NCBI GenBank assembly: GCA_947632205.1
Contig: CANROK010000001.1
Coordinates: 4,682 to 68,681 of the forward strand
DNA length: 64,000 nt
Direction of reading: 5' to 3'
Source of the DNA: an uncultured Bacilli bacterium
GTDB taxonomy: Bacteria; Bacillota_I; Bacilli_A; RF39; UBA660
The position numbers and the translations under genes are program-made. The notes beneath the pieces were generated by a model, which was not told the DNA's origin, ran no database searches, and worked only from the letters and a program-made list of their open reading frames with translations. The first letter of the stretch is position 1; each line of letters opens with the position of its first letter. Shown here one piece after another: positions 4,655-35,384 of the stretch.

Positions 4655-6271
4655 TTAATTTAATATTCTTATTACTTCTGGTAATACTTGTTTTTTTCTA
4701 GACATAACGTTTTCTAAAAAATCACCTTGGGTTAAATTGTTTTTAAAAGCATCCATTAAAATGTTCTTAGCACTTTCATTAAATAAAATATAAGATCCAT
4801 TTTTAAAGATATCGGTTATTAAAAAAATCATAATATCATATTTTTCACTTTTAGCTTCTTTATTTAAATAATTAATATAGCTATGCTTTTGTTTTAAAAT
4901 GGCTTTAGAATTAAGAGTAGTTATTTGACCTATACCAATATTTTTCTTATCAATAGTATAAGTTTTAAAATCCATATTAACAATTTCTTTAATGGTTTTT
5001 GATTTAACAACATCGCCAGCTTTAAACATCGCCATAGCTAAATCTATTGGTTTGATATTTGCTATTTTACTTAAATTTTCTATAGCTATTTCATCATCTT
5101 TAGTGGCAGTAGCACTTTTTAACATTAAAGTATCAGATATTATACCAGCCATTAAAAGCCCTGCGATATGTTCTGGAATTTTTACTTTATTTTCTATATA
5201 TAATCCATAAATTATTGTACAAGTACTACCCACAATCATATTTCTAAAACTTATCGGTTTAGTTGTACCAAGTATGCCCAATTTATGATGGTCAATAATT
5301 TCTAAGATATCTGCTTCATCTAAGCCATCCACACTTTGATTAACTTCATTATGATCAACTAAAATAACTTTTTTAGGATTAGTGTTTCTTAAATCAGAAA
5401 GTTTTATTAAGCCCAAACATTCATTATTATTATTAATAACAGGATAATAACTATGTTTAGTTTTATTAATAATATCATTTAAATCACTAACATCTAATTT
5501 TTCGTTTACTACCATAATGTCTTTTTGATAAGGATAATTATATATATAACTGGCAAATTTTATTTTAAGTAATGTTTCATAAGTATCTTTTTTAGTATAT
5601 ATAATATTAATTTTATTTTTTCTTGCTAACTTTAAATGTTCGTCTTTAAATTTATTATTACCCGTAACTATTATTAATTTAACTTTTTTATTAATAGCAT
5701 CTTCAATGATTGAATATCTATTTCCTACTACTAAGATGGAATTTTTATTAAGTAAATTTTCTTCTTTAAAAGTAGAACTTCTTAAATCTATATTTGTAAT
5801 ATTACCTTCAATTTCACTTTGAAATCTTAAGATTTCTATCCCATCTAAAGCATCAAGAATATAATCATAATTAGTTTTTAGAATATTTATATCGCCAAGA
5901 ATTTCTTGTCTGGCTATATCTTTCATCGCAAAAGTACCTACAAAGTTATTTTTATTATCCACAACCGGAATTGTACTCATATTATTATTTTGCATTTCAA
6001 AAAAAGCATTATAAACTGAGTTATTAATATTAATTTTAAAATCTTTATGATAATTAATATTTTTAACTTGTAATTTAACATCTTCTAAAATTGGCGGTAT
6101 ATCTACTTTAAATTTATTTAAAACATATTTTGTTTCTTCGTTTATATTGGATAAAATTCTTGGCTCTGTATTGTATCCTAATGCATTTTTTAAATAAGAT
6201 AGAGAAATAGCACTACAAACACTATCAGTATCAGGATTTTTATGGCCAAATATATATATTTTATCTTTCAT
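4655..6271 (-). CDS. CBS-domain family II (Mn-dependent) inorganic pyrophosphatase, DHH-CBS-DHHA2
   Basis: The N-terminus KIYIFGHKNPDTDSVCSAISLSYL matches the PpaC start, and it has the DHNE motif (VILVDHNEVNQS). The length (~538 aa) fits an inserted CBS pair. The ORF track starts at a GTG; I place the start at the downstream ATG (MKDKIYIF) with RBS AAAGGTGG. Confidence 0.7.
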   Translation of the reverse strand: MKDKIYIFGHKNPDTDSVCSAISLSYLKNALGYNTEPRILSNINEETKYVLNKFKVDIPPILEDVKLQVKNINYHKDFKININNSVYNAFFEMQNNNMSTIPVVDNKNNFVGTFAMKDIARQEILGDINILKTNYDYILDALDGIEILRFQSEIEGNITNIDLRSSTFKEENLLNKNSILVVGNRYSIIEDAINKKVKLIIVTGNNKFKDEHLKLARKNKINIIYTKKDTYETLLKIKFASYIYNYPYQKDIMVVNEKLDVSDLNDIINKTKHSYYPVINNNNECLGLIKLSDLRNTNPKKVILVDHNEVNQSVDGLDEADILEIIDHHKLGILGTTKPISFRNMIVGSTCTIIYGLYIENKVKIPEHIAGLLMAGIISDTLMLKSATATKDDEIAIENLSKIANIKPIDLAMAMFKAGDVVKSKTIKEIVNMDFKTYTIDKKNIGIGQITTLNSKAILKQKHSYINYLNKEAKSEKYDIMIFLITDIFKNGSYILFNESAKNILMDAFKNNLTQGDFLENVMSRKKQVLPEVIRILN

Positions 6272-6395
6272 TGCAACCACCTTTTAAAAAATTATACCAT
6301 TTAAAAATATATCTGACAATTGAATAATAAAAAATATAAATTATTTCGACAAAAAAATAATTTTTAATTTGCTATAGTATTAAGGGTGAAATATA

Positions 6396-6563
6396 ATGAA
6401 AGTAAAATTATTTGATGAAGAATGTGAGAGGGATTTAGAAAATAGTGTAAATGAATTTTTATTAAAAGATGTTGATGTTATTGATATTAAATATCAAGTA
6501 GCAGTGGGAATTAATGGAGAGGAACAAATATATTGTTTTAGTGCTATGATTATATACCATTAA
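6396..6563 (+). CDS. Cse60-like small sporulation protein (55 aa), not in the ORF track
   Basis: It translates to MKVKLFDEECERDLENSVNEFLLKDVDVIDIKYQVAVGINGEEQIYCFSAMIIYH. There is an RBS AAGGGTGA 8 nt upstream and an intrinsic terminator directly downstream. It resembles B. subtilis Cse60/YteV by recollection. Confidence 0.5.
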   Translation: MKVKLFDEECERDLENSVNEFLLKDVDVIDIKYQVAVGINGEEQIYCFSAMIIYH

Positions 6564-25974: not shown

Positions 25975-25984
25975 AATTGTAACA

Positions 25985-26105
25985 TCTTATAAAGAGTGAT
26001 GGAGGGACTAGCCCAATGAAGTCACACCAACCTATTTAATTAGGTGGTAATGCTAGAGCTATAAGATAACTTTGAAACATTCAAGTTATCTTGGGTGTTT
26101 TTTTA
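25985..26105 (+). promoter_or_regulatory. SAM-I (S-box) riboswitch with intrinsic terminator
   Basis: It has the P1 pairing tcttat/ataaga, conserved GGAGGGACTAGCCCAATGAAG...CACCAACC...GGTGGTAATGC core blocks, and a terminator agataactt/aagttatct + T8. It lies directly upstream of metK. Confidence 0.85.
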
Positions 26106-26135: not shown

Positions 26136-27158
26136 ATGAAATTATATAGTAACGAAATTGTTTTTAGAGGTCATCCTGATAAAGTGTGTGACCAAATAAG
26201 TGATGCTCTTTTAGATGCTTACTTAAAAGGTGATAAACAAAGTAGATGTGGTATTGAAGTAATGGGAGGTAAAGGTAAAATATTTATTACGGGAGAAGTA
26301 ACAAGTAAAAGTAATATTAATGTTCAAGATATTGTTAAAAGAGTTTTAGAAGATGTTGGTTATGATAGTAATGTAGAAATTATTAACAATTTAGGAGTAC
26401 AAAGTAGTGATATCGCGATGGGTACAAATGATTTAGTTAATGGTGCTGGTGATAATGGCATGATGTTTGGTTATGCTTGTCGGGATAATGATAAATACTT
26501 ACCAACAGCCATGGTAATCTTACAAAAATTTAGTGAAGAGTATGATAATTTAAGAAAACAAGATAAAAGATTCTTACCTGATGGCAAAGCAGAAATTACT
26601 GGTATATATGATGATAATAATCATCTTTCTAAAATAAAAACATTTACAATATGTTATCAAAATACGGAAGAAGAAAGAAGTAAAACTGATCAAATTTTAA
26701 AAAATTTAGTAAATAAAATATGTAAACAATATAATATTGAAGTTTTAGAGTATTTAATTAATCCAACGGGAAGATTTAAAATTGGTGGCTTTATGGGAGA
26801 TGCTGGTCTTACAGGAAGAAAAATAGTTGTTGATAGTTATGAATCTTTTGCACCCGTTGGGGGAGGAGCTTTCTCTGGAAAAGACCCAACTAAAGTTGAT
26901 CGAAGTGGAGCATATAAAGCCAGAAGTTTAGCAGTAAGAGTATTAGAAGAAAATAAAGATATAAATACTTGTGAAATTCAATTATCTTATGCCATAGGAA
27001 AAGAAGAACCACTGGCAATATACATTAAAACCGATAAAGGAGATTTAGAACCAACGAAAGAAATGTATGAAGAATGTAAAGTTAAAAATATAATAAATGA
27101 TTTAAATTTATTAAATATTAGTTATGAAGAAAAAGCTAGATTTGGTCATTTTAGATAA
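26136..27158 (+). CDS. metK: S-adenosylmethionine synthetase (short form, 340 aa)
   Basis: It has GHPDKVCDQISDA, GAGDNGMMFGYA, INPTGRFKIGGFMGDAGLTGRKIVVD, GGGAFSGKD and a C-terminal FGHF motif. Confidence 0.9.
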   Translation: MKLYSNEIVFRGHPDKVCDQISDALLDAYLKGDKQSRCGIEVMGGKGKIFITGEVTSKSNINVQDIVKRVLEDVGYDSNVEIINNLGVQSSDIAMGTNDLVNGAGDNGMMFGYACRDNDKYLPTAMVILQKFSEEYDNLRKQDKRFLPDGKAEITGIYDDNNHLSKIKTFTICYQNTEEERSKTDQILKNLVNKICKQYNIEVLEYLINPTGRFKIGGFMGDAGLTGRKIVVDSYESFAPVGGGAFSGKDPTKVDRSGAYKARSLAVRVLEENKDINTCEIQLSYAIGKEEPLAIYIKTDKGDLEPTKEMYEECKVKNIINDLNLLNISYEEKARFGHFR

Positions 27159-30541: not shown

Positions 30542-30642
30542 ATTTAAATAGTACTTGCTTTAGAATAGTTGGTACTATTTTTATTAGTAAAGAAGTTTAA
30601 CATAAAAAAGAAGATAATTTGATTCATCTTCTTATAATAAAT

Positions 30643-31524
30643 TTAATCATTTTTGATAAATGGGAATATCTTTTTTATCAATGTTAATCTTTTTTGCCTT
30701 TTCATTTCTTCATACTTTATTTGTTCTTCTTGTCTTTGCTTCATTTCTTCTTGTCTTTGTTTTAGTTCATCCAATTGTTTTTGCTTTAATTCTAATTGCT
30801 TTTTTCTTATTTCTAATAATTGTTTTTGACACCATATTGGGCAATCAGATATATTAACAAAAATTCTTTTGAAAATTTCATTTTCTTTTCCTTTAATACC
30901 TTCTATAACAATATTAGAATTACATTTTATGTCGTATTTATTACTACAACTTAAAGCAATTAAATATAAATCATTTTTAAACTGAATATTTATTGCATCA
31001 TTACCAATGTAAACATCAAATAATGAATTAATTGGATGAATATTATACTTATCATTTTTATAATCTTTATAATCAGCATAAGTTAGAAATTCATCATACA
31101 TTATAGATAACTTAGAACTTAAAACATTAAATACATCATCAATAAACAATTTATCAGGATATGATTCATTTTTGGTTTTAGCTACATATAAATCACCATT
31201 TCTTTTTGCAAAATAAATATCTATACACTCTTTATTAAGATCATTAATATCAAAAAGAAGTTGAAACCCAATATGTAATAATTTGTTTTTAAAATCAAAA
31301 CCATAAAGAACAATGAAACTATCTATGGAAAAATTCTTTTTCATATAATAATCAAGTATATTATTGAATTGTTTTCTCATATTTTCATATTCATTGTCTA
31401 ATTTTCTTAATAAAATTGCTGCATCATATAAAGATATACAATTATAATCATTATTATCTTTAGAAGTTAAAATTTTTTTGATTTCTTCTAATATTATTGT
31501 TTGAGAATTAATTGGTATCATCAT
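30643..31524 (-). CDS. hypothetical protein with C-terminal K/Q/E-rich coiled-coil repeat
   Basis: It is a long ORF. The start is placed at ATGATG (MMIPIN) after RBS AAGGAAG; the track start is a GTG. The C-terminus has reiterated KQLxELKQ(R/K)Q heptads. Confidence 0.45.
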   Translation of the reverse strand: MMIPINSQTIILEEIKKILTSKDNNDYNCISLYDAAILLRKLDNEYENMRKQFNNILDYYMKKNFSIDSFIVLYGFDFKNKLLHIGFQLLFDINDLNKECIDIYFAKRNGDLYVAKTKNESYPDKLFIDDVFNVLSSKLSIMYDEFLTYADYKDYKNDKYNIHPINSLFDVYIGNDAINIQFKNDLYLIALSCSNKYDIKCNSNIVIEGIKGKENEIFKRIFVNISDCPIWCQKQLLEIRKKQLELKQKQLDELKQRQEEMKQRQEEQIKYEEMKRQKRLTLIKKIFPFIKND

Positions 31525-31562
31525 AATTAACACTTCCTTTGCCTAAATATTATAAACTAATT

Positions 31563-31945
31563 ATTATTTAATAACAATAAAAAATACGTTATAATTTAGT
31601 AGAGGCGACTAATAAATGAATGCAGTAAGTATAGCTAAAGCTCAAAATAATTTTTATAAATTGGTGTCAGATGTAAATGCCGGATTGGGTCCAATTACGA
31701 TTGTTAATAATAAAGGTAAAAATGCCGTTTTAATATCAGAAAGTGAATGGAAAAATATTGAAGAAACTTTATTTTTATCAAATATACCAGATTATATTGA
31801 AAATATTAATAGTATAAAAAATAACGAAAATTGGAATACTGCTTTAGAATATAAAAGAGATGAAGAATGGTAATTATTAAATAACCGAAAATAAACATGT
31901 TTTTATTTTCTTTTTTTGTCAAAAAATAACGTTTTTAACATATAG
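31563..31945 (+). repeat. copy 1 of a ~375-bp direct repeat (promoter + phd/yefM gene + downstream palindrome)
   Basis: It is near-identical to 32858..33238. The coding part is 100% identical, and the 5' flank has a handful of mismatches. Confidence 0.85.
31616..31873 (+). CDS. Phd/YefM-family type II antitoxin (copy 1), no cognate toxin downstream
   Basis: MNAVSIAKAQNNFYKLV...AVLISESEWKNIEETLFL has the same residue pattern as E. coli YefM (Y.EA..N......V....P..I......AV..S..E....EET..L). There is a TTATAAT -10 and RBS AGAGGCGA. Confidence 0.75.
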   Translation: MNAVSIAKAQNNFYKLVSDVNAGLGPITIVNNKGKNAVLISESEWKNIEETLFLSNIPDYIENINSIKNNENWNTALEYKRDEEW

Positions 31946-32189
31946 ATAAATTTTTATTGACATAATTATAATTTATTATATAATAAATTAACTAATTTAA
32001 TAAATTGTATTATTGCTTTTAAGGATTAAATTAGTTATAATTTTTATAGAAGAAAATTTTTATTTGTTCTTCTACATTTTACGTGATAGAAAAGAGTAAT
32101 TTGTATTAGTTGCTCTTAGTCTAAACATATACTTTGAGCATCTATGAATTAATAGTGCTCATTTTTAATAATTAAATTAAATTAGAAAG

Positions 32190-32372
32190 ATGAAGGAGAA
32201 TATGGAAAACGAAAAAAAAGATTTTAGAAGTAATGAGTTAAAAAAAAGAGTAAAAATTTTAATGGAAAAATCTAAAAAATTGAAGCTTATTAAGCCGCAT
32301 ACATTAGCATTTAAAGAAAATCCAACAGAAGTTGAAGAACATAAAGGAAAATTAATTGCATATAGAAAGTAG
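32190..32372 (+). CDS. small basic protein (56-60 aa), candidate antitoxin partner of the downstream MazF-like gene
   Basis: RBS GAAGGAG is present. The stop is 8 nt before the next gene's ATG. No fold was recognised. Confidence 0.4.
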   Translation: MKENMENEKKDFRSNELKKRVKILMEKSKKLKLIKPHTLAFKENPTEVEEHKGKLIAYRK

Positions 32373-32379
32373 GAGCAAT

Positions 32380-32757
32380 ATGAAATATGAGGTCGGTGAT
32401 ATAGTTTTTGTATCAAAATATAAATACGATAATGGAGAAAAAGGAAAAAATCATTTATTTGTTATAATTGATGAAGAAGAAAATTTGGTTCCTGTTGAAT
32501 ATTTTGGCATGATAGTTTCTTCGAGAATTGAAAAATCAAAAGAAAATTCGAATTTTAAATTTAATGAACCTTTAAGGAAAAATAAAATAAATAAATTAAA
32601 TGTTGATAGCATAGTAAAATGCGATCAAATTTACAAAATACCTTCAAAAAATATTCAATTTAAAATAGGTAGAGTTGATATTGATGATTACATAAGATTT
32701 ATGGATGCTTATAATATAGCTTTGCAAGAAATAGAAGATAAATTACAAACTGTATAA
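32380..32757 (+). CDS. divergent MazF/PemK/EndoA-family endoribonuclease toxin-like protein
   Basis: It aligns with B. subtilis EndoA along its length: GDIVFV~GDVYFA, G-E-G at the same spacing, FVII~LVIQ, SSRIEKSK~TAQIQKAK, DSIVKCDQIYKI~DSVILLEQIRTI and IGRVD~ITHLD. The track start is a TTG; the start is placed at the ATG at 32380 after AGGAG. Confidence 0.6.
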   Translation: MKYEVGDIVFVSKYKYDNGEKGKNHLFVIIDEEENLVPVEYFGMIVSSRIEKSKENSNFKFNEPLRKNKINKLNVDSIVKCDQIYKIPSKNIQFKIGRVDIDDYIRFMDAYNIALQEIEDKLQTV

Positions 32758-32857
32758 TTAAAACAAAAAATCTTTGTGAAAAAAGATTTTTTTAATTCTT
32801 CATAAGTTTTAGTGTTTATTATTTCATTTTCAATTGTGTGTTAAAAGTAGTTTAATA

Positions 32858-33238
32858 ATTATTTAATAACAATAAAAAATACATTATAATTAAGTGGAGG
32901 TGACTAATAAATGAATGCAGTAAGTATAGCTAAAGCTCAAAATAATTTTTATAAATTGGTGTCAGATGTAAATGCCGGATTGGGTCCAATTACGATTGTT
33001 AATAATAAAGGTAAAAATGCCGTTTTAATATCAGAAAGTGAATGGAAAAATATTGAAGAAACTTTATTTTTATCAAATATACCAGATTATATTGAAAATA
33101 TTAATAGTATAAAAAATAACGAAAATTGGAATACTGCTTTAGAATATAAAAGAGATGAAGAATGGTAATTATTAAATAACCGAAAATAAACATGTTTTTA
33201 TTTTCTTTTTTTGTCAAAAAAGCATGTTTTTTAATGAC
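32858..33238 (+). repeat. copy 2 of the ~375-bp direct repeat
   Basis: See copy 1. Confidence 0.85.
32911..33168 (+). CDS. Phd/YefM-family type II antitoxin (copy 2, identical protein)
   Basis: The 85-aa product is identical to 31616..31873. RBS GGAGGTGA is present. Confidence 0.75.
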   Translation: MNAVSIAKAQNNFYKLVSDVNAGLGPITIVNNKGKNAVLISESEWKNIEETLFLSNIPDYIENINSIKNNENWNTALEYKRDEEW

Positions 33239-33287: not shown

Positions 33288-35384
33288 ATGAATTACTTAG
33301 ATAGTTTAAATAAAGAGCAAAAAGAAGCTGTTAAACATATATATGGGCCTTGTTTAGTAGTAGCAGGAGCTGGTTCAGGAAAAACGAAAGTACTAACTAC
33401 GAGAATAGCATACTTAATTGATTCTGGGATTTATAGTGGTAATATTTTAGCGATTACATTTACAAATAAAGCTGCAAAAGAAATGAAAGAAAGGGTTAGT
33501 ACGATGGTTACTAATAACTATGCTTTTGTGGGAACATTTCATTCCTTTGGCTTAAGAATAATTAAAGAAAACTATGATACTTTAGGTTTAACGAAAAATT
33601 TTACAATATTAGATTCTGATGATGTTTTAAGTTTAATTAAAAAAATCATGAAAGATTTAAATTATGATATTAAAGATATTGCCCCATCTTATATTAGAAA
33701 TAGAATAAGTTTTATTAAAAATGAAATGTTAAGTGATGGCGAAGTAGAAAAATATTTTATTAGTGATATTGAAAAGATTGTAGTTAAAGTATATTTTGAA
33801 TATCAAAAAAGATTAAGAAAGAATAATGTTATTGATTTTGATGATTTACTTAAATTACCAGTTGAATTATTTATGAAACATGAAGATATATTAGATAAAT
33901 ATCAAGAGAAATATCAATATATCTTAGTAGATGAATATCAAGATACAAATGAAGTTCAATATAAATTAATAAAATTATTAAGTAAGAAATATCGTAATAT
34001 TTTTGTAGTAGGTGATCAAAATCAAGCTATATATGGATTTAGACAAGCTAATTATAAGAATATAGTTAATTTTGAAAAAGATTATCAAGATGCTAAAGTT
34101 GTTGTTTTAAATCAAAATTATCGTAGTACGACGACAATATTAAATGTTGCTAATTCAGTTATTAAAAATAATGTTCATAAAAAAGAAGTTAATTTATTTA
34201 GTGAACTTGGTGAAGGAGTAAAAGTTAAGTATTTAAGAAGTAATAATGGGGTACAAGAAGCAACAGTTATATGTGAAGAAATAAATAATTTACTGAGTGA
34301 AGGATACAAAAAAAATGATATAGCTATTTTTTATAGAACTAATGCTCAATCACGGGTATATGAAGAAGCATTATTAAAATATAATATTCCTTATAAAGTA
34401 TTTGGAAGTATCTATTTCTATAAAAGAAAAGAAATAAAAGATTTAATTAGTTATTTAAAATTAATTGCTAATCATGATGATGATATAGCTCTAAAAAGAA
34501 TTATAAATGAACCAAAAAGAGGAGTAGGAAGTAAAACAATTGAAGATTTAGAAATAACTAGTAATTTAGAATATAAATCAATGTATGAAGTTATTACTAA
34601 AGGAAAAGAATTAGAATTTAAAAAGATAATTGAAGAGTTAACTAAAGATGCCGAAAGCATGTCTTTAACAGAATTAATTGATGATGTTTTAGAAAAATCA
34701 GGAATAAAAGAAAGTTTAACTAAAGATAATTCTTTAGAAGGCGAACTTAGAATGGAAAACTTATTAGAATTTAGAAGTATTACAGAAAGTTATCAAAATG
34801 TTACAGGTAGTGTTAACTTACAAGACTTCTTAGATGAAATAAGTTTAATTGCTGATATTGAAGAACATAAAAATGATGGTGATAATGTTACATTAATGAC
34901 TCTACATTCAGCGAAAGGATTAGAATTTAAAGTAGTCTTTTTAGCAGGAATGGAAGATGGCTTATTACCACATGCTAATTCCTTTATGGAAGAAGATGGT
35001 ATCGAAGAAGAAAGACGGCTTTGCTATGTTGGGATTACAAGGGCTAAAGAAAGATTGTATTTAACTAATGCTAAATCAAGAATGTTATATGGAAAAGAAT
35101 CGATGAATCCACCATCAAGATTTATAAGTGAAATAGAAAATAAATATATTGAAAGTAATGTTCAAGAAGAGAAAATTAAACCTAATTTAAATAGTGAAGC
35201 ATTTAAAGATATATTATATAATGATGGTGAGGTTACTTATAAACATGGGGATAGAGTTATTCATGATAGTTTTGGCTCTGGAGTAGTTGTAGGAGTAGAT
35301 GATAAATTTATCTCTATTGCATTTAGTAAAAATATTGGTATAAAGAAATTTTTAAAAAATTATAAAGGTATAAGGAAAGGATAA
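33288..35384 (+). CDS. pcrA: ATP-dependent DNA helicase PcrA (UvrD/Rep SF1)
   Basis: Walker A AGAGSGKT and the SF1 helicase motifs (VDEYQDTN, LNQNYRST) are present. It lies upstream of ligA, as in B. subtilis. Confidence 0.9.
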   Translation: MNYLDSLNKEQKEAVKHIYGPCLVVAGAGSGKTKVLTTRIAYLIDSGIYSGNILAITFTNKAAKEMKERVSTMVTNNYAFVGTFHSFGLRIIKENYDTLGLTKNFTILDSDDVLSLIKKIMKDLNYDIKDIAPSYIRNRISFIKNEMLSDGEVEKYFISDIEKIVVKVYFEYQKRLRKNNVIDFDDLLKLPVELFMKHEDILDKYQEKYQYILVDEYQDTNEVQYKLIKLLSKKYRNIFVVGDQNQAIYGFRQANYKNIVNFEKDYQDAKVVVLNQNYRSTTTILNVANSVIKNNVHKKEVNLFSELGEGVKVKYLRSNNGVQEATVICEEINNLLSEGYKKNDIAIFYRTNAQSRVYEEALLKYNIPYKVFGSIYFYKRKEIKDLISYLKLIANHDDDIALKRIINEPKRGVGSKTIEDLEITSNLEYKSMYEVITKGKELEFKKIIEELTKDAESMSLTELIDDVLEKSGIKESLTKDNSLEGELRMENLLEFRSITESYQNVTGSVNLQDFLDEISLIADIEEHKNDGDNVTLMTLHSAKGLEFKVVFLAGMEDGLLPHANSFMEEDGIEEERRLCYVGITRAKERLYLTNAKSRMLYGKESMNPPSRFISEIENKYIESNVQEEKIKPNLNSEAFKDILYNDGEVTYKHGDRVIHDSFGSGVVVGVDDKFISIAFSKNIGIKKFLKNYKGIRKG

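Follow-up and report, generated by a model that had tools for sequence, protein, structure and literature searches.

A probable yefM-yoeB remnant doubled around an independent MazF-type module at a toxin-antitoxin hotspot upstream of pcrA

Toxin-antitoxin (TA) modules bracketed by direct repeats reportedly lie in deletion-prone segments whose loss would be penalised by the toxin. That chromosomal antitoxins can act in anti-addiction is well established. YefM-YoeB is autoregulated through an operator in its promoter that consists of two palindromes, each with GTAC at its core, whose centres lie 12 bp apart (PMC1802561). Here we analyse a locus in which two copies of a YefM-type antitoxin gene, neither with a toxin partner, flank a two-gene MazF-type cassette. 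The arrangement is probably a yefM-yoeB remnant doubled around an independent MazF-type module at a TA hotspot between a gene that we call X and pcrA. The window, the whole 64-kb stretch of DNA that was analysed, comes from an uncultured rabbit-gut Bacilli bacterium with 25% G+C.

The yefM copies lie in a long and nearly perfect direct repeat. Self-comparison of the window at offset 1295 and a repeat search place R1 at 31558–31926 and R2 at 32853–33221, both on the plus strand, with 369 bp and 98.6% identity. This agrees with an earlier sequence-only reading of the same DNA, which had put the repeat at ~375 bp and had described identical phd/yefM ORFs with differing promoter and RBS flanks. 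All five mismatches (R1 positions 31562, 31588, 31597, 31601 and 31606) fall 5' of the ATG, and the Shine-Dalgarno sequence of R2 (GGAGGTGA) is stronger than that of R1 (AGAGGCGA). The terminal 320 bp, which span the 258-bp ORF, the bases next to the RBS and 53 bp beyond the 3' end, are 100% alike, a figure that may be slightly overstated because assembly on de Bruijn graphs can even out the differences between repeats that are nearly the same. All five mismatches crowd into the initial 49 bp and the following 320 bp have none, a skew unexpected under plain duplication and drift; gene conversion, mosaic ancestry or homogenisation by the assembler is needed to account for it. The segment between the copies (31927–32852) carries the small ORF and MazF-like gene read there earlier and measures 926 bp, not 925.

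Independent sequences confirmed that assembly did not create the duplication. In two other samples, contigs run through R1, cassette and R2 in full, one 100% identical to the window (L003) and one 99.7% identical (L001). A Logan unitig from a separate project (L006, k=31) spans 31897–32931 and ends exactly 30 nt beyond the last copy-specific base on both sides, as a two-copy genome predicts. The idea that an assembler made the duplicate from a single real yefM copy draws on the fact that every available sequence was assembled from short metagenome reads, in several cases at about 3x coverage; copy-specific SNPs, four distinct flanks, the two contigs that cross the structure besides the window's own and the unitig's end points make it extremely improbable.

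Both copies encode the same 85-aa antitoxin of the Phd/YefM family. Copy 1 (31616–31873, plus strand) and copy 2 (32911–33168, plus strand) match PF02604 (E=1.6e-11, 44.3 bits, cut-off 29.8) and TIGR01552, phd_fam (37.7 bits, cut-off 20.8); against the equivalog NF008499 for E. coli YefM the score of 26.7 bits falls below the cut-off of 121. PDB YefM antitoxins are matched at E=1.5e-7 to 5e-3. Among species-representative loci the protein is 61–74% identical to YefM encoded beside yoeB. Relative to the YefM of intact pairs identity is 72–73%, and the differences extend across the C-terminal part that binds the toxin. The sequence-only reading had found no Doc/YoeB/RelE-type toxin after either copy, and indeed no YoeB, Doc or RelE ORF lies 3' of either one, nor did tblastn with YoeB find a match anywhere in the 64-kb window. 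What follows each copy is a yoeB stub of six codons, ATG AAG AAT GGT AAT TAT TAA (MKNGNY*), at 31860–31880 in R1 and 33155–33175 in R2 on the plus strand. Like yoeB in intact operons, it overlaps the stop codon of yefM, and it equals the N-terminus of the YoeB encoded on contig L007 (MKNGNYIIKF).

The sequence comparisons argue that each repeat is what decay has left of a yefM-yoeB operon. Aligned with the intact operon of a relative (L033), it has lost about 290 bp of yoeB, starting at codon 7 and reaching slightly beyond the stop codon. Alignment with L033 and L038 further shows that 64 bp of promoter are missing, including the ancestral -35 box (TTGACG) and the left GTAC box, and that the right box is mutated. 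Otherwise R1 is a complete transcription unit, running from a promoter-like site (TTAATA-16-TATAAT, 10 of 12 positions; 31568–31595 in R1, 32863–32890 in R2, plus strand) through RBS, yefM and stub to a hairpin and T-run. The hairpin (31887–31917, plus strand) is weak, with a 9-bp A/T-rich stem, dG -5.5 kcal/mol and a T7 run, and does not fold significantly better than shuffles (z -1.3); it is the equivalent of the terminator after yoeB in L033.

Loss of the toxin goes with loss of the operator across the clade. We surveyed 80 species-representative yefM loci, five of them cut by contig ends; the 75 assessable ones comprise 66 intact yefM-yoeB pairs, five with degraded yoeB and four orphans. 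Paired GTAC boxes 12 bp apart occur in 60 of the 66 intact pairs vs none of the four orphans, and none are found in R1, in R2 or anywhere in the window. Having neither YoeB nor a paired operator, the YefM copies have probably lost autoregulation. All haplotypes of the site retain an intact yefM ORF, and orphan yefM has a dN/dS of 0.30–0.46, estimated from 3–10 substitutions and not significantly below 1, vs 0.11 for intact pairs. Given these values on few substitutions, orphan YefM may keep some function.

The cassette between the repeats carries a predicted MazF-type toxin gene and a small upstream ORF. The toxin candidate (32380–32757, plus strand, 125 aa) matches PF02452, PemK_toxin, over profile positions 2–98 of 109 (E=1.4e-7, 32.2 bits, cut-off 23.1); it has no NCBIfam match. 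Because neither single-sequence (phmmer) nor profile searches gave a significant PDB match, a fold search was needed. In an AF2 model (pLDDT 81, pTM 0.69) the protein is predicted to adopt the MazF/CcdB-type SH3-like barrel fold: the best 50 PDB matches by Foldseek are all MazF or MoxT (TM 0.6–0.75, probability 1.00), headed by B. anthracis MoxT and the MazF of S. aureus and B. subtilis at TM about 0.7. The protein has 664 homologues. The motifs invariant in the family, G.NHLFVI and YFG.IVSS, look unlike the usual Arg/Thr catalytic motifs, as judged by eye only. The upstream ORF, a putative antitoxin gene for this toxin (32202–32372, plus strand, 56 aa), has the Shine-Dalgarno sequence AAGGAG 6 nt upstream. 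We prefer this start because the 60-aa reading from 32190 begins within that Shine-Dalgarno sequence. The 56-aa protein has zero matches in Pfam, NCBIfam and PDB, and PADLOC on five locus proteins returned no defence-system match.

The two cassette genes also occur together in contexts that have no yefM. In L015, L019, L020 and L113 the MazF-like gene is immediately preceded by a homologue of 52 to 58 aa, with gaps of 5–8 nt in the window, L015, L019 and L020 (7 nt in the window). The pair is present in other gut Bacilli MAGs, and both chromosomal contexts with neighbours listed, a cotZ-side one (L015–L019) and a mutS-side one (L020–L023), have it without Phd/yefM. It also occurs on the viral contig L113, where the pair itself was examined; among viral contigs this distant MazF-like locus stands alone, so the module is not typically phage-borne. 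DNA homology of the cassettes in other contexts to the window is restricted to 32168–32763, and the cassette has no conserved ends in other genomes. On this evidence the pair is an independent, complete two-gene type II module, with toxicity and neutralisation predicted. The sequence-only reading had placed a different, MazF/PemK-like two-gene cassette between the copies, and family match, fold and occurrence elsewhere all bear it out.

A leader specific to this strain group precedes the cassette genes. The segment 31927–32167 (plus strand) comprises a promoter, a structured stretch of ~180 nt and a terminator-like hairpin followed by a T-run (32135–32161, plus strand), and shows homology at no other locus compared. 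Its promoter matches consensus at 12 of 12 positions, with TTGACA (31957–31962), a 16-nt spacer and TATAAT (31979–31984). The sequence-only reading had placed a promoter-like region in the segment between the copies, but in the string it gave (TTGACATAATTATAAT) TATAAT follows the -35 box by just 4 nt, whereas the boxes of the consensus promoter are 16 nt apart. Rfam searches of the window and locus gave nothing in the leader and a SAM riboswitch elsewhere; the hairpin motif had two matches in JGI metagenomes, unrelated and high in G+C. A second hairpin and T-run after the MazF-like gene (32765–32792, plus strand; dG -8.1 kcal/mol, z -2.5) is a likely terminator.

The site is rearranged among close relatives. 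R1 is flanked on the left by X (30643–31533, minus strand, 293–296 aa), a member of a family of 27 proteins with no Pfam, NCBIfam or PADLOC match, and R2 on the right by pcrA, a UvrD-family helicase gene (33288–35384, plus strand). X also adjoins yefM in L033 and L111, and pcrA keeps its place relative to yefM in L033, L031 and L014. L033 has the arrangement X (87%)-yefM-yoeB (intact)-pcrA (93%), and L111 the upstream part, with X (90%), the full promoter and yefM. Relatives thus carry a recognisable cognate toxin at this very site, a finding that counts against the earlier account. A second haplotype, o161-X-yefM-pcrA (L002), is single-copy and cassette-less; a third reads o161-anti56-[mazF gone]-yefM-pcrA (L031, L014); the fourth is that of the window, shared by L001 and L003. 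Four arrangements at one site among related contigs mark it as a recombination hotspot. Presence of the cassette, which the sequence-only reading had proposed comparing among relatives, is variable: the low-coverage L002 is without it, and L033 has yefM-yoeB.

Low-coverage contigs carry both junctions of a possible exchange between the repeats. L002 combines R1-type 5' SNPs with an R2-type 3' flank, as an R1xR2 deletion product would, and L005 has the reciprocal junction, cassette end, repeat with R2-type SNPs and cassette start. With coverage of about 2–3x (L005: 684 bp, 1.9x) and both traversing the 320-bp identical stretch, L002 and L005 could be graph paths and no real molecules. In L031 and L014 the anti56 remnant precedes the X 3' remnant, that is, it lies on the other side of it, and divergence from the window is uneven, the X remnant being 84%, anti56 about 78% and the flanks 97% identical. 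Derivation of L031 and L014 from the window by deletions is ruled out by this order and by 84% and about 78% vs 97% in the flanks. A scenario in which [X + yefM] was duplicated in tandem and the second X then replaced is likewise ruled out, the segment left of R2 having no DNA similarity to the X 5' end. As a possible relic of the N-terminal domain of long-form X homologues, 32783–32852 (minus strand) scores 4.9 bits, a value reached by 5 of 300 shuffles in a post hoc comparison. No simple deletion series connects the haplotypes.

The junctions suggest how the window arrangement could have arisen. In alignment, the left flank of R1 runs on as the X-yefM spacer of L033 and the right flank of R2 as its yoeB-pcrA spacer. 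The outer junctions with X and with pcrA are ancestral and both inner junctions are new, so the structure equals [cassette + second unit] inserted beside the original unit. The 19 bp directly left of R2 (TTGTGTGTTAAAAGTAGTT, 32834–32852, plus strand) are also found left of the lone yefM unit in L031, and in L014 with two mismatches. Two deletions would have pared down the yefM-yoeB operon, one taking 64 bp of promoter that held the -35 box and a single GTAC box of the pair, the other about 290 bp of yoeB. What remained would be a self-contained yefM that has its RBS, a promoter-like site and the terminator of the former operon. Insertion may then have come about by a Campbell-type single crossover or by illegitimate recombination helped by homology, the donor DNA presumably stemming from a different haplotype that had the cassette beside the unit already. 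The 369-bp direct repeats would permit RecA-type deletion of the cassette and one copy, or amplification, and the cassette toxin would be expected to penalise such loss, as TA modules generally do. Deletion through the repeats, foreseen by the sequence-only reading, is plausible in view of the single-copy, cassette-less L002, whereas the inversion it also foresaw is not, since direct repeats yield deletion or duplication only. Its picture of a duplicated module that captured a different toxin cassette fits the orphan copies and the self-contained MazF-type module but overlooked the yoeB stub and the intact yefM-yoeB at this site in a close relative.

Other roles for the yefM copies fit the data less well. 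YefM might regulate the MazF-like cassette or serve it as a second antitoxin, with both flanking copies functional, much as the earlier proposal of Phd acting in trans or on a three-component partner had it. Yet the pair does without yefM in both chromosomal contexts (L015–L019, L020–L023), intact yoeB follows close YefM relatives at 66 of the 75 assessable loci, no GTAC box lies in or near the cassette promoter, the yefM unit is older than the cassette at the site (L033, L111), and L031 and L014 retain yefM with mazF gone. Tight physical linkage, two intact and identical ORFs, a yefM dN/dS below 1 and the swap of the cassette promoter region for a unique leader, which makes new regulation conceivable, leave such a role very unlikely all the same. 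Alternatively, orphan yefM was kept and doubled for anti-addiction or immunity, free YefM guarding against YoeB on mobile DNA or elsewhere in the genome and operator loss giving constitutive expression. This we consider quite unlikely: yefM-yoeB is nearly universal in the clade (YoeB 64–100% identical to the L012 query), four haplotypes and both copies keep the ORF intact, all four orphans have lost the operator and dN/dS is 0.30–0.46, but that ratio lies above the 0.11 of intact pairs and is not significantly below 1, and window YefM shares just 72–73% identity with YefM from intact pairs and differs from it in the toxin-binding part too.

The repeat and cassette might also form an excisable or amplifiable unit of 1295 bp, a circle or tandem array integrated by recombination at yefM. 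The L005 junction is the one expected of such a molecule and L002 is the matching empty site, with ancestral outer and new inner junctions in the window; L005, however, is a 684-bp, 1.9x sequence across a 320-bp identical stretch, a valid de Bruijn path even if no such molecule exists, no recombinase is present, and the cassette ends are not conserved in other genomes. The idea is unlikely. A reading in which yefM was doubled as a deregulated, operator-less free antitoxin against clade YoeB, and its copies at the same time make the MazF module losable or amplifiable, with cassette copy number varying within the population, strikes us as decidedly doubtful. If, as we favour, the repeats are a doubled yefM-yoeB remnant, the YefM copies would be no partners of the MazF-like toxin; they would be decaying leftovers, or at most free YefM buffering YoeB from elsewhere.

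The site upstream of pcrA documents chromosomal TA turnover among close relatives. The stages seen are yefM-yoeB in intact form, yefM stripped of both toxin and operator, a second TA module from another family, and that module decayed to a lone antitoxin. What the locus shows looks like TA genes being gained, decaying and being reshuffled in the ordinary way, with no new type of system, and current ideas on TA systems stand unchanged by it. That toxin loss goes with operator loss across the clade is a small, testable general point on orphan antitoxins, and the 56-aa partner of a MazF-fold protein, belonging to no described antitoxin family, could merit a biochemical look.

A limited literature search found no description of an orphan antitoxin unit serving as the repeat. 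Like YefM-YoeB (PF02604), the window has an antitoxin of the same family and length, the overlap with the yoeB start kept as a six-codon stub, and the same terminator and genomic site as the intact operon of relatives; unlike it, the unit is toxin-less and doubled, and its promoter has lost the -35 box and one GTAC box to deletion and the second GTAC box to mutation. The cassette resembles MazEF/PemIK (PF02452) in its small upstream ORF, its toxin of ~120 aa 7 nt further on and its predicted MazF fold, and differs in a 56-aa partner that matches no MazE, PemI, AbrB or RHH family and no PDB chain. As in orphan antitoxins and decayed chromosomal TA loci, the toxin was lost first and the antitoxin kept, in a variable region. 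Unlike repeat-flanked TA cassettes, the repeat here is itself the orphan antitoxin unit.

The duplication of the yefM unit is real. Comparison of the window with itself at offset 1295 and a repeat finder both delimit a direct repeat of 369 bp per copy, R1 at 31558-31926 and R2 at 32853-33221, with 926 bp between them in a window of 25% G+C. Each copy carries the same 85-aa ORF on the plus strand (31616-31873 and 32911-33168 in the ORF list), and the locus is flanked by proS and a 161-aa ORF (o161) on the left and by pcrA on the right. Five mismatches separate the copies (31562, 31588, 31597, 31601 and 31606), all of them 5' of the ATG, within the -10/RBS zone; over the other 320 bp the copies agree throughout, an identity that may be slightly optimistic since assemblers can blur small differences between near-identical repeats. 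The identical phd/yefM ORFs with differing 5' flanks reported by the sequence-only reading are therefore confirmed. That every mismatch is confined to the first 49 bp needs an explanation: gene conversion at a later stage, a mosaic origin or smoothing by the assembler. Against the assembly artefact which that reading had entertained stand contigs from other samples that span the full R1-cassette-R2 structure at 100% (L003) and 99.7% (L001) identity. A sequencing project unrelated to these contributes a k-mer unitig (L006) that likewise spans 31897-32931 and ends on both sides exactly 30 nt past the last copy-distinguishing base, the expectation for a two-copy genome.

Each unit is a decayed yefM-yoeB locus. 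Its 85-aa product is a Phd/YefM antitoxin (PF02604, 44.3 bits; also TIGR01552) whose best PDB sequence matches are solved YefM-type antitoxins. The database has 1,559 homologues at E <= 1e-5, and nearly all of the best 120 have a length of 85 aa. On the contigs of two more distant homologues (P0115 and P0027), a YoeB gene comes next, with about 14 bp of overlap at the antitoxin stop, and a 95% identical one (P0001) is a further toxin-less copy at the same site, on contig L014. A species scan at one genome each yielded 80 yefM loci, mostly from rabbit ('Lapin') gut MAGs labelled uncultured Bacilli/Tenericutes: 66 are intact yefM-yoeB pairs, 5 have a degraded yoeB, 4 are true orphans and 5 are cut by a contig end. 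The pair recurs in gut MAGs labelled 'Bacilli/Tenericutes' from rabbits, ruminants and humans, dozens in all (L031-L110, 80 loci), with YefM constant at 85 aa and YoeB 64-100% identical to the L012 YoeB query, mostly 70-90%. Some genomes have two such loci (L044 and L064, for example, lie in one MAG).

The decisive locus for the origin of the repeat unit is L033, a related contig on which gene X (minus strand), yefM, an intact yoeB and pcrA follow one another at the site corresponding to that of the window. Its proteins are 93% (pcrA) and 87% (gene X) identical to those of the window, and L111 has the same X-promoter-yefM arrangement. Alignment with L033 and L038 shows that two pieces of that operon are missing from the window unit. 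One is a 64-bp promoter segment with the -35 box TTGACG and the left of two paired GTAC-core boxes; the other, about 290 bp long, runs from yoeB codon 7 to just beyond the stop. Codons 1-6 of yoeB remain as a stub, MKNGNY-stop (31860-31880 and 33155-33175), identical to the N-terminus of the L007 YoeB, and the hairpin and T-run at the unit end correspond to the post-yoeB terminator of L033. The left flank of R1 matches the X-yefM spacer of L033 and the right flank of R2 its yoeB-pcrA spacer; the outer junctions are thus ancestral and the inner junctions both new.

Where the toxin is lost, the autoregulatory site has decayed as well. The E. coli YefM-YoeB pair represses itself through two palindromes built on TGTACA, their centres 12 bp apart, and the GTAC core is common to Phd operators too (PMC1802561). 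Paired GTAC boxes 12 bp apart precede the yefM ATG by 41-55 bp (mostly 41-47) in 60 of the 66 intact pairs, several of the six others being contigs that start too near the gene; all four orphan loci lack them, as does the entire 64-kb window. The remaining right box is mutated differently in R1, R2, L031 and L014. Across L031-L110 the promoter/operator is highly conserved (ACGTACGT-N6-GTACGT before TATAAT). The yefM ORF itself remains intact. Values of dN/dS are 0.30-0.46 among orphan alleles, on 3-10 substitutions, and 0.11 between two intact-pair alleles, suggesting that orphan yefM is under relaxed constraint, though constraint is not demonstrably absent.

We read the cassette between the repeats as a complete, independent type II module. 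On the plus strand, a 56-aa ORF (anti56, 32202-32372) is followed after 7 nt by a 125-aa ORF (32380-32757) scoring above the Pfam PemK/MazF threshold. The 125-aa protein has 664 homologues, and the neighbourhoods listed place the homologous gene with cotZ and PBP genes (L015-L019) or with mutS (L020-L023), in both contexts behind a homologous 56- to 58-aa ORF and with no yefM nearby. On a viral contig (L113), where the pair itself was examined, a small ORF of the anti56 family again lies directly upstream of a MazF-like gene. DNA similarity of other loci to the window is confined to 32168-32763, the two genes and their RBS. PDB sequence searches with the MazF-like protein were uninformative; its AlphaFold model (35 homologues, pLDDT 81) matches MazF and MoxT structures only, at TM ~0.7, and the usual MazF Arg/Thr pair is not obvious by eye among the invariant motifs of the family. 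Together, the yefM-free contexts, the conserved upstream ORF and the fold argue for a MazF-fold toxin, presumably an RNase, and an antitoxin predicted to neutralise it. This putative antitoxin has no match in Pfam, NCBIfam or PDB and is read as an undescribed family. A different toxin cassette between the phd copies, as first proposed, is supported by the homologous pair in two contexts free of yefM. Just downstream of the homologous module in L015 lie an IS91-family (Y2 transposase) gene and two small ORFs (5205-6470, minus strand) that are absent from its sister genome L019.

The cassette promoter, TTGACA-16 nt-TATAAT at 31957-31984, matches the sigma-70 consensus at 12 of 12 positions. The sequence-only reading had both spacer ORFs right, but this promoter is not the contiguous string that it quoted. 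A leader unique to the window's strain group makes up the first 241 bp (31927-32167) of the cassette. On the plus strand, 31990-32172 adopts a fold of four hairpins (dG -39 kcal/mol, z -3.5; none of 200 shuffles reached that stability), and the leader ends in a terminator-like hairpin and U-run (dG -11.4 kcal/mol, z -3.3) just before the antitoxin RBS. It has no Rfam match and no relatives for covariation analysis, and may serve as an attenuator or encode a small RNA.

Related contigs show the site in four arrangements: X-yefM-yoeB-pcrA (L033, and L111 for the left part); o161-X-yefM-pcrA (L002); o161, an anti56 remnant, no mazF, a 3' remnant of X, yefM and pcrA (L031 and L014 (36x coverage)); and o161-X-yefM-[anti56-mazF]-yefM-pcrA (the window, L001 and L003). 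The single unit of L002 has R1-type SNPs at its 5' end and the pcrA-side flank at its 3' end, the structure expected of recombination between R1 and R2, and L005 holds the reciprocal junction: cassette end, a repeat with R2-type SNPs, cassette start. Both are 2-3x contigs running through a 320-bp identical stretch, so this evidence is suggestive rather than proof; at the least, L002 represents a strain of its own, having private SNPs and none in common with L001. Derivation of L031 and L014 from the window by deletions alone is ruled out by the order of parts. The 19 bp left of the R2 unit form a junction that recurs in L031 exactly and in L014 with two mismatches. Relative to the window, these contigs have 84% identity in the anti56 remnant, about 78% in the X remnant and 97% in the flanks. 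Such diverged remnants, in that order, imply that diverged haplotypes have exchanged DNA with the site on more than one occasion. On the most economical account, a fragment of cassette plus yefM unit would have joined a chromosome already carrying X-yefM-pcrA, with the yefM unit as homologous anchor, perhaps by Campbell-type or homology-facilitated illegitimate recombination.

Smaller changes also mark the site. L002 (5223-5228, window 33539-33604) has a 66-bp in-frame deletion in pcrA that takes out ...FHSFGLRIIKENYDTLGLTKNF..., including a conserved helicase motif; with only ~5 bp of microhomology around it, a graph artefact is unlikely. L001 (2913-2917, window 30551-30571) lacks 21 bp, one arm of the hairpin after o161 (TAGTAC...GTACTA plus T-run), a further small indel in the same variable region. 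Gene X (30643-31533, minus strand) encodes a member of a small, unannotated family that numbers 27 proteins (P0241-P0267). Distant members of 350-377 aa have an extra N-terminal domain of ~100 aa; the window protein (293 aa) and its close relatives do without it, their starts corresponding to residue 96-99 of the longer proteins. A Lys/Glu/Gln-rich repeat, variable in length, leads up to a conserved C-terminus (...EIFKRIFVxISDCPxW...KIFPFIKK). A minus-strand translation of the stretch left of R2 (32783-32891; ..TIENEIINTKTYEELKK..) weakly resembles the end of that N-terminal domain, at an HMM score of 4.9 bits equalled by 5 of 300 shuffles in a post hoc test; if real, the resemblance would mean that the cassette tail came from beside an X-like gene. 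Elsewhere in the window, a SAM (S-box) riboswitch (25984-26067, plus strand, 66.9 bits) lies directly 5' of the S-adenosylmethionine synthetase gene (26136-27158).

Each yefM unit would be transcribed from a residual promoter, TTAATA-16-TATAAT, and R2 has the better Shine-Dalgarno sequence. YefM is probably no longer autoregulated, because corepressor and operator are gone, and would have no role in the MazF-type module. That free YefM is kept as a buffer against foreign YoeB seems improbable to us. Homologous recombination between the repeats should be liable to delete or amplify the cassette; inversion, also suggested initially, does not follow from their direct orientation. Deletion would be selected against by toxin that outlasts its gene.

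Orphan antitoxins and toxin-antitoxin hotspots are well documented, and both parts of this locus are of known kinds, one a decayed YefM-YoeB locus, the other a divergent module of MazEF-like type. Mildly new are an orphan antitoxin unit that itself forms the direct repeats around another toxin-antitoxin module, the clade-wide tie between toxin loss and operator loss, and anti56 as an uncharacterised antitoxin family. Compared with the YefM-YoeB operon, the window unit shares the antitoxin, the yoeB start and the terminator, without the toxin and the operator pair, and the cassette is a divergent member of the MazEF-like modules.
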